Of a DNA stretch of 64,000 nucleotides, positions 8,461 through 63,106 are shown piece after piece (within the stretch, counting starts at the first letter, position 1; the number at the start of each line of letters is the position of its first letter). Below the pieces are notes generated by a model that did not search any database, had not been told where the DNA came from, and worked only from the letters and a program-made list of their open reading frames with translations. Source of the DNA: Candidatus Freyarchaeum deiterrae (GTDB lineage Archaea; Asgardarchaeota; Jordiarchaeia; Jordiarchaeales; Jordiarchaeaceae); contig CP147778.1 of assembly GCA_037305845.1 (NCBI GenBank), forward strand, positions 832,001 through 896,000, written 5' to 3'. The position numbers and the translations under genes were made by a program.

Positions 8461-8651
8461 AAAAGCACCTTTAACAAAGCAAATTTAAATTATTTAACTA
8501 ATTAAGAAATAGCAAATTGGTTTAATAACCCTTTATGTGTAATTTACTGTGAACTTTTGTACGATACTCAAAAATGCATAGTAAAATTAAACTCTTAGTA
8601 AGAAGGGTGAATTCATATTTAAATTCTTGAATACCAAAAAGGGTGTTTTAC

Positions 8652-9092
8652 ATGAGCGAGGATGAAAAACCTGAAGTCTGCGAGATTTCTTCTGACCTTT
8701 TGAAACGAGCGGTAGAATTCCATGGGCATTTGGGTCCTTTCTTGGTGTTAGGTCTTATGATGTCGAATACAGCTTGCAGATTCCTGAAGCAAGTATCGGG
8801 TGTTAAAATTAAAACTAGATTAGTGCCCCCGCGTAGCTGTGTCCTTGACGGAGTTCAAGTAGCAACCAAATGCACATTGGGTAATACAAAACTGTTCTCC
8901 GTTGAATCCCAATCGGAGATAAGCGGTGAGTTCAGAGGCGAAGGTAAAAAAATATTAATAGTTTGTAAGAAAAAATTCTTGGAAAACCTTGAAAATCGCA
9001 TGAAAAGAAAGGAGAAAACTGGTGAAGAAGAGGCTTTGAACATCGCGGAAATGAATTATGAAGAAATATTTGATGTTAAGAAAATCGAATAA
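8652..9092 (+). CDS. FmdE-family protein
   Basis: AVEFHGHLGPFLVLG, SCVLDGVQVATKCTLG. Confidence 0.85.
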   Translation: MSEDEKPEVCEISSDLLKRAVEFHGHLGPFLVLGLMMSNTACRFLKQVSGVKIKTRLVPPRSCVLDGVQVATKCTLGNTKLFSVESQSEISGEFRGEGKKILIVCKKKFLENLENRMKRKEKTGEEEALNIAEMNYEEIFDVKKIE

Positions 9093-9211
9093 GAATATAC
9101 CAACTCATCTGACTCAATGTGACGAGAAATTCAGAACCGCTGCAAAACCTCAATATGGAACATATGTTTATTTCTAATACTTCTTAAGCTTGCAAGCTTC
9201 CGAGTATTCTA

Positions 9212-9368
9212 CTATTACATCTAAACCAGCACTGACATACTCCCAACCCTGAAGGGTTAGGGGTTCTACACTTCTACTACTGTTGTTAGTGTTAGAAGTG
9301 TTGGACGTGCCACCGCCCAGTTAACGGCTTCCGCACCCCTCTCTCTTCGGGGTGAGCAAGCCCTATTA
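9212..9368 (-). ncRNA. Putative stand-alone TnpB-type omegaRNA (reRNA) scaffold plus about 20-nt flank-derived guide
   Basis: Stems GGCUU/AAGCC, CACCCC/GGGGUG, UGGGCG/CGUCCA, ACACUUCUA/UAGAAGUGU and the RE hairpin; loop UGGCA can pair with terminal UGUCA (pseudoknot); TATA box about 25 nt upstream; ends approximate. Confidence 0.6.
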
Positions 9369-9452
9369 TCCTCTTTTCTCTTTTTTCACTATTTAAACTC
9401 CACGCAATTCATCCCCGTCTTTAAAATAATGGGGCTTTCTTGCTAATCCTCT
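9232..9452 (-). mobile_element. Non-autonomous IS200/IS605-family mini-element (PATE-like, TnpB-type orientation), 221 bp, no ORF
   Basis: Minus strand left end: TTAC|AGAGGATTA-GCAAG-AAAG-CCCC...GGGGATGAATTGC. Right end: GAAC-CCCTAACCCTTCAGGGTTGGGAGTATG-TCAG|. The guide/cleavage pairs AAAG/TTAC and GAAC/TCAG fit the IS608 TnpA pairing rule. Confidence 0.8.
9390..9397 (-). promoter_or_regulatory. TATA box (TTTAAATA) inside the mini-element left end
   Basis: Archaeal TATA consensus positioned to start transcription at the beginning of the structured RNA. Confidence 0.5.
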
Positions 9453-9604
9453 GTAATAATTGAGTTTGAATGGAAGGCGCCCTCTTGATTAGCTGAGTGG
9501 TTTATTACAAGCTTTATATTTGGGAAGTTTATTAATAGTGAACTAGTCTAAAGTATGTTTTTAGATTGGGTTAATTGAAAATTTTCAAATATGCAGGGTG
9601 ATAT

Positions 9605-11797
9605 TTGATGAGATCCGCGGTGGTTCGAGTATCAGAGGCGAAGCCCCGAGATGTAGGACATGGAATTGTTAGGGTTGATCCCCAAGTCGCTGAAAAACTC
9701 AACATAACCACAGGGGATACAGTTGAGATTGTTGGCAAGAAAAGAACCGTGGCGCTGTCTTGGTATGGTTATCCAGAGGATAGAGGGAATCAAATCATAA
9801 GAATTGATGGCGCATCACGAAGGAATGCTGGTGTAGGGATTGATGATAAGGCAAGTATTAGAAGAATCGATGCTCGACCCGCTACCAAGCTGGTTTTGGC
9901 TCCTACTGAAAACCTCAGCTTGACCGAAGGAGAAGAATATTTCAAAAAAATCTTAGAGGGTAGAGCAGTTACTTCCGGTGACTATCTGGAAATACCCGTG
10001 ATGGGTGAAAAGATTCTGCTAGTAGTAGCTTCTTATAAGCCAAAATGTGAAGCGATAATCGTAAACAAGGGAACGGAAATAAAAATCAACCCCAAACCAG
10101 TTAAGGAAATTAAAGATACCAGTGTGCGTAAGGTCTCATACGAGGATATCGGTGGTCTGCATGAGGAGGTTAGGCGAGTGCGTGAAATGATTGAGCTTCC
10201 TCTACGCCACCCTGAGGTATTCGATCGTCTGGGAATCTCTGCGCCCAAGGGGGTTTTGTTGCACGGACCACCAGGAACAGGAAAAACACTTCTCGCGAAA
10301 GCGGTTGCAAACGAAACCGAAGCATACTTTGTCGCCATAAGCGGCCCAGAAATCATGAGTAAATTCTACGGTGAGAGCGAAGGCAGACTGAGGGAAATAT
10401 TCCGAGACGCGGAGAGAAACGCCCCCAGCATAGTCTTTATAGACGAGCTTGATAGCATAGCCCCAAAAAGGGAAGAAGTAACAGGGGAAGTGGAGCGAAG
10501 AGTCGTCGCCCAACTCCTAGCACTAATGGATGGTTTACAATCCCGGGGTGAACTGGTTGTTATAGGTGGCACCAACCGACCTAATGCTCTCGACCCTGCT
10601 CTGAGGCGGGGAGGGCGTTTCGATAGGGAAATCGAATTCGGCATACCCAACAAGCAAGCCCGGTTAGAAATATTACAGATACACACCCGAGGAATGCCGC
10701 TGGCAGACGATGTGGATCTAAAATTTATATCAGAGTACACGCATGGTTTTGTAGGCGCTGACATCGAGGCGCTGTGTAAAGAAGCAGCTATGCTTGCTTT
10801 AAGAAGAGTTCTGCCCGAGATATATTTAGAAACAGATAGTATACCAGCAGAAGTGCTAAACAAGATAGAAGTAAACATGCAAGACTTTACTAATGCTCTC
10901 AGAAACATTGAACCATCCGCCATGAGAGAAGTCCTAGTAGAAGTCCCGAACGTAAAGTGGGAGGAAGTTGGGGGATTGCTGGAAGCAAAACAGCAACTAA
11001 TAGAAACTGTGGAATGGCCCCTCAAATATGGCAAGTTTTTCAACCATATGGGTGCAAAACCTCTGAAGGGAATATTCCTGCACGGCCCACCGGGAACTGG
11101 TAAGACTCTGCTGGTTAAGGCTCTGGCGAACGAGAGTCAGGCGAACTTCATCTCCATTAAGGGTCCGGAGTTTCTTAGCAAGTATGTTGGAGAGAGTGAG
11201 AGAGCGGTTAGAGAGACTTTTAGAAAAGCGAGACAATCAGCTCCCTGCATCGTATTCTTTGACGAGATTGACGCTATCGCTCCGGTTCGCGGTATGGGTT
11301 TCGGCGACTCTCATGTTTCCGAGAGGGTTATAAGCCAGATACTCACCGAAATGGACGGTTTAGAAGAACTCCACAACGTTGTTGTCGTTGCTGCAACCAA
11401 TAGACCGGATATCGTGGATCACGCATTACTGCGACCAGGCAGATTTGACCGCATAGTTTACATTCCTATTCCAGACAAAGAGTCAAGGATGGAGATTTTC
11501 AAAATCCACACTGCTCACAGTCCAATTGACAGAGATATAGACTTGAAAGAATTGGCGGAGAGGACTGATGGCTATACCGGAGCAGATATTTACGCTATCT
11601 GTAACGAGGCTATTATGATTGCAATAAGGGAGTATATAATGAGCAACCAGATAGACGAAAAAACCGAAGACTTCCAGACGTACACAATTAAAAGGAGCCA
11701 CTTCGAAAAAGCTTTGGAGAGAGTTAAACCGCTAACGAAAGGGCAAATAGAAAGATACGAAGAGATAGCCAGAAACTTCGCTGAAGGTTTGGCATAA
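9605..11797 (+). CDS. cdc48: CDC48/VCP family AAA ATPase
   Basis: N-domain plus two AAA modules (GPPGTGKT twice, [31 protein letters not shown]). Confidence 0.95.
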
Positions 11798-62771: not shown

Positions 62772-63086
62772 CTCTACTCCGCAAGGAAGCCCACTAACTT
62801 TAGTTAAGGCTCGAGAAATTGCGGATTTATGGGGTGGGGCTTTCATTGTCTATAAGGTCTGGTGACCCACAAACCAGTTTAACCCCTTCGACAAGCCGAG
62901 CCGGACCTTAGCTACCCCTAGGCGCCACGTATTGAGTAGTTCTGCCGAAGGGAAGCGGGACTAGACCGCATATCCCGCCGTTCTCGTAGCCCGAGGTGGG
63001 CAATCGTTTGAAACTACAATGTCCGGTTAAGATTTGCGTTTTTACAATCATTACAAGCCCGCACGATTTGGCCGTAGGTTCTTGAT
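62772..63086 (+). mobile_element. Non-autonomous IS200/IS605-family element (IscB/IsrB-type arrangement), 315 bp, inserted in the nurA-like 3' end
   Basis: Left end: TCAC|CTCTACTCC-GCAAG-GAAG-CCC...AATTGC. Right end: CAAG-CCCGCACG...CGTAGGTTCT-TGAT|. Removal restores the reading frame of the host gene. Confidence 0.75.
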
Positions 63087-63106
63087 GTCTATCCCGTGTT
63101 TTGGTT
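62830..63106 (-). ncRNA. Putative IscB/IsrB-type omegaRNA (HEARO-like), stand-alone
   Basis: Scaffold begins AUCAAGAACCUACGG...GGGCUUG; multiple helices with minus-strand G-U pairs and three possible pseudoknots; ends approximate. Confidence 0.6.

Follow-up and report, generated by a model that had tools for sequence, protein, structure and literature searches.

A gene-less IS200/IS605-type element carrying a predicted omegaRNA cassette in the Asgard archaeon Candidatus Freyarchaeum deiterrae

The 64,000-nucleotide stretch of the Candidatus Freyarchaeum deiterrae genome analyzed here (the window) contains, between an open reading frame that ends at 9092 and cdc48, which begins at 9605, a 221-bp segment (9452-9232, minus strand) in which an earlier note had recognized a TnpB-type guide-RNA cassette without a TnpB. 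This raises the question of how a guide-RNA gene came to stand on its own between transposon ends and what, if anything, its RNA could guide. The measured length agrees with the 221 bp that had been claimed, all of the named features are found on the minus strand where they had been placed, and an open-reading-frame check found no frame of at least 60 aa inside the element. The features, including those of the flanking DNA, are as follows.

9453-9456, minus: TTAC target tetranucleotide (host DNA), directly 5' of 11/11 near-full copies and of both tnpB-bearing parents described below; left cleavage site for TnpA and the TAM predicted for TnpB
9402-9452, minus: left end, with AAAG guide tetranucleotide (9438-9435), subterminal hairpin (9434-9413) and conserved ATGAATTGC
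9390-9397, minus: TATA box TTTAAATA, from the parent tnpB promoter and found in both parents; predicted promoter
9364-9389, minus: deletion joint, made up of an A-rich spacer and the invariant TAATA; similarity to the parent breaks at element positions 87/91
9268-9362, minus: helices 1-3 of the omegaRNA scaffold, contributed by the 3' end of tnpB; TGGCA (9312-9308) is the pseudoknot loop
9362-9326, 9319-9302, 9301-9268 and 9264-9239, minus: the four scaffold helices
9232-9266, minus: right end, with GAAC guide tetranucleotide (9266-9263), UUCA hairpin, terminal TGTCA (9237-9233, the 3' strand of the pseudoknot) and TCAG ending at 9232 (right cleavage site)
9212-9231, minus: predicted guide, the 20-nt 3' flank, antisense to a guaA-type (GMP synthase) gene-end remnant
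9150-9475, plus: decayed guaA-type 3' remnant, split by the element

AAAG/TTAC is the guide-target pair of IS608. The left-end hairpin of the window copy is weak, at about -6 kcal/mol, and archaeal TATA spacing predicts that transcription would start at about 9369-9364. Beyond the right end, at a distance of 30 nt and within the pseudogene remnant, lies a short palindrome (a doubled AAGCTT, window 9171-9200).

We searched the host genome (G000, a single 3.58-Mb contig, C1) using BLAST, nhmmer and a covariance model and recovered 11 near-full and three decayed copies, along with end fragments and a single orphan scaffold. TTAC directly precedes every near-full copy, against a genome background of 0.41% per site, and TCAG ends eight of the 11, the right end being broken in a duplicated pair; bar one duplicated pair, the flanks all differ. 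Identity of the window copy to the others in G000 is in the range 73-85%; its closest relative, at 87.6%, sits at an unrelated site in the congener G002. The same ends also bound two 1.4-kb tnpB-only elements, here called parents (C1:2434934-2436345, plus strand, and C1:3247879-3249294, minus strand, L002). When the window copy is aligned with one of these, positions 1-87 (left end and promoter) match at 84% and positions 91-225 at 81%, the segment matched by the scaffold being the 3' end of tnpB; the mini-element is therefore a parent minus its leader and nearly all of tnpB. The parent TATA box stands 23 nt before the ATAG of the scaffold.

Judged by these sequence comparisons, the window element is a PATE, an internal-deletion derivative of a tnpB-only IS200/IS605 parent: it has hairpins with guide and cleavage tetranucleotides at both ends (AAAG/TTAC and GAAC/TCAG), it is a gene-less internal deletion of a known parent, and its family is dispersed, with insertion 3' of a fixed tetranucleotide and without target duplication. 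The 11 copies and the parents support the proposal that this is a minimal mobile element in which both ends, the promoter and the omegaRNA scaffold are kept, and the sequence proved to be neither single-copy nor devoid of a tnpB-linked homolog with a matching 3' region, two of the conditions that the earlier note had named as refuting its reading.

In both parents, a leader of ~85 nt with a nested inverted repeat (C1:2435015-2435100 and the matching part of C1:3249136-3249212) runs from the promoter to the TTG start of tnpB; it is gone from the mini-elements. The orphan scaffold (L221, C1:283077-283230, minus) has a TATA-like box, TAATA and helices 1 and 2 without a left end, and its 3' half is remodelled, with a TGTCA that can still pair with the loop. 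An origin from IS607 was rejected since the TnpB of the serine-resolvase/tnpB pair at C1:2623244-2625011 shows only distant relatedness and has a different 3' end, and a further candidate member (L111) was dismissed as a chance pattern match. Comparison of copy orientation with GC skew gave no clear strand bias.

The flanks of the copies bear on what the guides are. In congeners, a guaA-type gene lies between the equivalent of the 8643-9092 ORF and cdc48; it is a 313-aa ORF in G002, and the same gene end is present in G003 and G005. In G000 most of the gene is gone, leaving a remnant of ~70-80 frameshifted nt that can still be aligned; another guaA is located at C1:812148-813092. Cutting the element out after TTAC and after TCAG gives the empty site ITSKPAVIIEFE, which aligns ungapped with the congener sequence ITSKPPATIEFE (73% over 37 nt). 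Because the end of the guaA-type gene is restored without a gap, the guide of the window copy is merely insertion flank, antisense to the end of a pseudogene. Elsewhere, a metagenome contig 87% identical to G000 carries a copy (L110) where G000 is empty (C1:1220540), with TTAT and then the same seven bases; the copy at C1:274872 lies inside a broken antitoxin-like gene, with homology starting at TTAC. The orthologous sites of three G000 copies were checked in congeners and hold no copy, and the orphan scaffold at C1:283077 is absent at the orthologous site in G002.

Two further observations concern insertion sites. The intergenic region beside the copy at C1:2246531 is ~1 kb shorter than that of the congeners (C1:2246782-2249016, L209-L212), as at the window locus, and deletion adjacent to these elements may recur. 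Three copies, clustered 1.0-1.2 kb apart at C1:274872-277680 (L051), flank two two-gene units, one of them a HEPN/nucleotidyltransferase-like pair. Two of the copies have 56-59 bp of left flank in common, and one sits in a frameshifted antitoxin-like gene of which the other half is absent. The common flank and the half-missing antitoxin-like gene suggest recombination between copies.

The 138-nt RNA (9369-9232) folds at -58.9 kcal/mol (z = -5.06, with 0/200 shuffles as stable), and the four stem-loops predicted for it correspond to the four helices. When 16 sequences, both mini and tnpB-linked, are compared, pairing holds in 95.9% of cells and two-sided changes occur in 16/36 pairs, including 9/21 in helices 1-3; the covariation score is 0.301, a value inflated by the relatedness of the 16 sequences, as compared to 0.136 for shuffled and at most 0.085 for slid controls. 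The pairing of UGGCA with UGUCA held up as well: in the same 16 sequences its five loop-terminus pairs are formed in 98.8% of cells with one column varying, two homologs (L054 and L064) show two-sided changes, and a motif search favors pairing. Covariation of the pseudoknot is thin because its 3' strand doubles as a TnpA site. The RNA thus combines two hallmarks of a reRNA, a scaffold of conserved structure drawn from the 3' end of tnpB together with the right end and a pseudoknot with the terminal nucleotides, the latter matching the architecture of the ISDra2 reRNA, where such a pseudoknot has been described (PMC10097598). GAAC/TCAG versus GAAT/TCAA covary in 25/26 parsed tnpB-linked homologs. 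The covariance model, which was built including the window copy, scores the window scaffold at 127 bits. No Rfam family matches the window at its gathering score; a weak HgcC match (RF00062) over the 3' 113 nt reaches 18.8 bits (E 0.041) where the gathering score is 50. A GC-richer stretch at window 62772-63106 (minus) gave no match to the covariance model of the scaffold.

A conserved fold may still be a legacy of tnpB. The element could be an inert or purely TnpA-dependent PATE whose scaffold and TATA box are passengers of one deletion, with an RNA that TnpB does not use. The covariation comes mostly from tnpB-linked homologs, as this reading would have it, and among the mini copies alone pair-preserving changes amount to 13/29 with P ranging from 0.009 to 0.58 depending on the assumed transition frequency, and so are not significant once transitions are taken to be frequent; copies at C1:2966155, 3054049, 3055568, 2509244, 1640702 and 1634748 are decayed, and G000 has no TnpA (see below). 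We nevertheless consider it unlikely, given how divergence is distributed among the mini copies. The TATA box diverges by 1-3%, helices 1-3 by about 5% (up to 5.5%) and the TAATA at the deletion joint by 0% in 13 copies, whereas spacer, loops and left-end hairpin diverge by 14-19%; thus the parts that TnpA does not need are better kept than the left-end hairpin that it does need, though the copies are related and not independent. Moreover, indels are confined to loops, and the TATA box stays 21-25 nt before the scaffold ATAG in 14/15 copies.

The same layout recurs in congeners. The covariance model finds matches in 24/101 genomes of the phylum, and G003 and G004 each have a mini family that derives from other parents and, behind a TATA-like box, breaks at this same boundary of the scaffold, with an ATGAAT-to-ATAG distance of 49 and 52-57 nt, respectively, as compared to 46 in the window family. 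Independent deletions that join a tnpB promoter to the same scaffold boundary argue that the RNA, and not only the DNA ends, is under selection, contrary to what is expected of inert passengers; that the RNA is important for the element is best argued from this convergence. Congeners also hold variants of the layout: G005 has ~25-30 near-identical mini-elements with ~65 extra nt between promoter and scaffold (L141, L152, L156), apparently a recent burst in a genome where TnpA is still present, and a mosaic mini-element in G002 (C115:3340-3547, L175) combines promoter and helix 1 of the window family with a 3' half like that of a different tnpB parent in G002.

A trans-acting guide needs an effector, and the two parents provide candidates within G000. 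The first encodes a 418-aa TnpB (C1:2435100-2436356; NF040570, 142 bits, cut-off 100) with D192, D364, a glycine (G282) in the canonical RuvC-II position and E330 as its alternative, residues kept in 20-21 of 21 TnpB homologs, so that one of the two parents has D192, E330 and D364 intact. The TnpB of the second parent (L002) is full length, carries D to N at RuvC-I, the single such case among the 21 homologs, and is from its sequence probably nuclease-dead. Among named homologs, those closest to the parent TnpB come from Ca. Jordarchaeum madagascariense, and one of them has the same 3' end as a match in G002; single-sequence structure prediction of the parent protein reached a pLDDT of 41. A comparable rearranged active site has been shown to be active in TvoTnpB, whose TAM is the motif at its left end (10.1101/2023.06.13.544871). 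By analogy, TTAC is the predicted TAM of the parent TnpB, and the TTAC TAM proposed earlier is retained as a prediction. As in the TvoTnpB/RIIr clades (10.1101/2023.06.13.544871; PMC10691335), glycine replaces the canonical RuvC-II glutamate; the alternative glutamate lies 48 residues later in the parent TnpB and about 45 in the TvoTnpB/RIIr paper, and the TAM would be TTAC here versus TGAC for TvoTnpB, the likeness to RIIr lying in the active-site residues.

The transposase presents a different picture, as neither a profile search nor tblastn found a Y1 TnpA in G000, leaving the PATE without a compatible transposase in its own genome. Y1 TnpA matches are present in 4/5 congeners, one of them broken and some beside TTAC/AAAG-type left ends. 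The copies in G000 are thus probably immobile now; the missing TnpA bears on present mobility and not on origin.

Taken together, we favor, at a probability of about 0.72, a non-autonomous PATE that has kept a self-transcribed omegaRNA and borrows TnpB in trans to cut its own empty site. In the first step, read directly from the sequence comparison, a tnpB-only parent lost its leader and almost all of tnpB, joining the TATA box to the scaffold at start-site distance. In the second, for which flanks and empty sites provide the evidence, the mini-element moved in one piece into positions 3' of TTAC, with no duplication of the target, presumably by a Y1 TnpA acting in trans that is now absent from G000 and present in congeners. 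In the third, transcription from about 9368 would run through TCAG into the flank to give scaffold plus a guide of ~16-20 nt, and this RNA would load into TnpB in trans, which would cut the element-free allele so that repair from the filled copy restores the element, following the model of PMC10055086. Through these steps both enzymes would be borrowed and the guide would be aimed at the element's own empty site. With TnpA lost, the copies are at present probably frozen, and some are decaying. Three points count against this reading: without a Y1 TnpA in G000, excision cannot now create the target; one of the two parent TnpBs has the D to N change; and, once the guide is included, its first 9 nt pair back onto the scaffold in the nested minimum-energy fold, although the folding program does not model pseudoknots.

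The earlier note had gone further and envisaged dispersed copies as a distributed guide library. In such a library, kept by the host, the cassettes would direct TnpB, either the active enzyme or the D-to-N protein acting as a binder, to viruses, other mobile DNA or host promoters. There are many copies with differing guides and an intact scaffold, one parent TnpB is probably nuclease-dead, and the guide at C1:274872 runs antisense to a gene of toxin-antitoxin type, which congeners have in intact form, all of which fits a library. The guides themselves, being insertion flanks, do not. When 13 guides were compared with G000, no perfect TTAC-adjacent match exceeded 9 nt and near-match counts were close to those of shuffled guides, the two 2-mismatch TTAC-adjacent matches both belonging to low-complexity guides; against 222 CRISPR spacers, none matched beyond 10 perfect nt. 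The window guide, searched as TTAC plus 14 nt, does hit 10 viral contigs versus 1 and 0 for two shuffles. These TTAC matches stop at 14-16 nt, however, and several encode a common peptide in unrelated proteins, while five 18-nt viral matches lack TTAC and plasmids yielded no match to this guide; that the guide was once coding sequence is the best explanation for the viral excess, an effect for which the two shuffles do not correct. A domesticated system, TldR-like or a CRISPR-like library, would be expected to have conserved guides with TAM-flanked targets, and we found no targets above chance and no copies at the orthologous sites checked in congeners. The library proposal is therefore not upheld, and we rate it very unlikely. 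We give similarly little credence to the narrower idea that selection keeps the cassettes as trans guides that aim the two TnpBs of G000, one active-looking and one D-to-N, beyond their own empty sites, for example at incoming toxin-antitoxin cassettes or at alleles coming from relatives; if true, such cassettes would amount to a primitive guide library in an Asgard archaeon.

PATE-encoded and standalone omegaRNAs have already been published (PMC10055086, PMC4615843, PMC3124441, PMC10691335), and the favored reading, a PATE using TnpB in trans, has close precedents. PATEs often encode omegaRNAs, on which TnpB of other elements must act in trans (PMC10055086). The protein-less, PATE-like IS200/IS605 elements of Geobacillus stearothermophilus (Meers et al., PMC10055086) resemble the window element in their gene-less ends, target motif and omegaRNA; the window family differs in its Asgard host, in the fusion of a TATA promoter to the scaffold, in the rearranged RuvC-II of its TnpB and in the lack of any remaining TnpA in the genome. 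Standalone omegaRNAs, as reviewed in PMC10691335, are mobilized loci without effector or transposase that work in trans with effector loci in the same genomes; the arrangement is that of the window family, for which trans function is proposed.

Archaeal RNAs of this kind are known to be transcribed. In Pyrococcus abyssi, sRk48/sRk52 and sRkB/sRkC are transcribed and some bind L7Ae, with the start site of sRk52 located 22 nt after a BRE/TATA box (PMC3124441); like the window RNA they are multi-copy, intergenic, ~130 nt long and related to the 3' end of an orphan OrfB (tnpB), a likeness drawn from their description in a paper that does not analyze transposon ends or a guide role. In Halobacterium, sotRNAs and the PATE-derived VNG_R0052 are transcribed (PMC4615843). 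The latter has, as does the window element, ends fused after transposase deletion and a right-end hairpin with a UUCA tetraloop; unlike the window element, the haloarchaeal PATE retains just part of the left end (PMC4615843). Overexpression of PATE-derived RNA altered growth in Halobacterium (PMC4615843), which lends something to a reading in which the RNA is a decoy or regulator, scaffold copies titrating TnpB or other RNA-binding proteins or affecting growth whatever the guide. Scaffold genes outnumber parents by ~5 to 1, as titration would call for. A host function of this sort sits poorly with the lack of host conservation at orthologous sites, and we hold it to be the least likely of the readings considered.

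Nothing in the window family points to a new system of defense or regulation. As a natural example, it cleanly illustrates the known idea that gene-less elements live on both transposon enzymes in trans, to which repeated independent deletions in one Asgard genus make a modest addition by marking the 5' end of a minimal omegaRNA. For an archaeal TnpB whose active site is rearranged, from a group related to Fanzors, it also offers a ready scaffold and TTAC as the predicted TAM.

Finally, one mini-element is found at the end of a CRISPR array. The array (from 78785) ends in gene-sized gaps of 1.9, 0.87 and 2.25 kb between single repeats (C1:84600-89761), the mini-element lies in the first of these (1.9 kb), and similarly spaced single repeats occur in G002 (C49); the intervals are possibly repeat-bounded gene cassettes.
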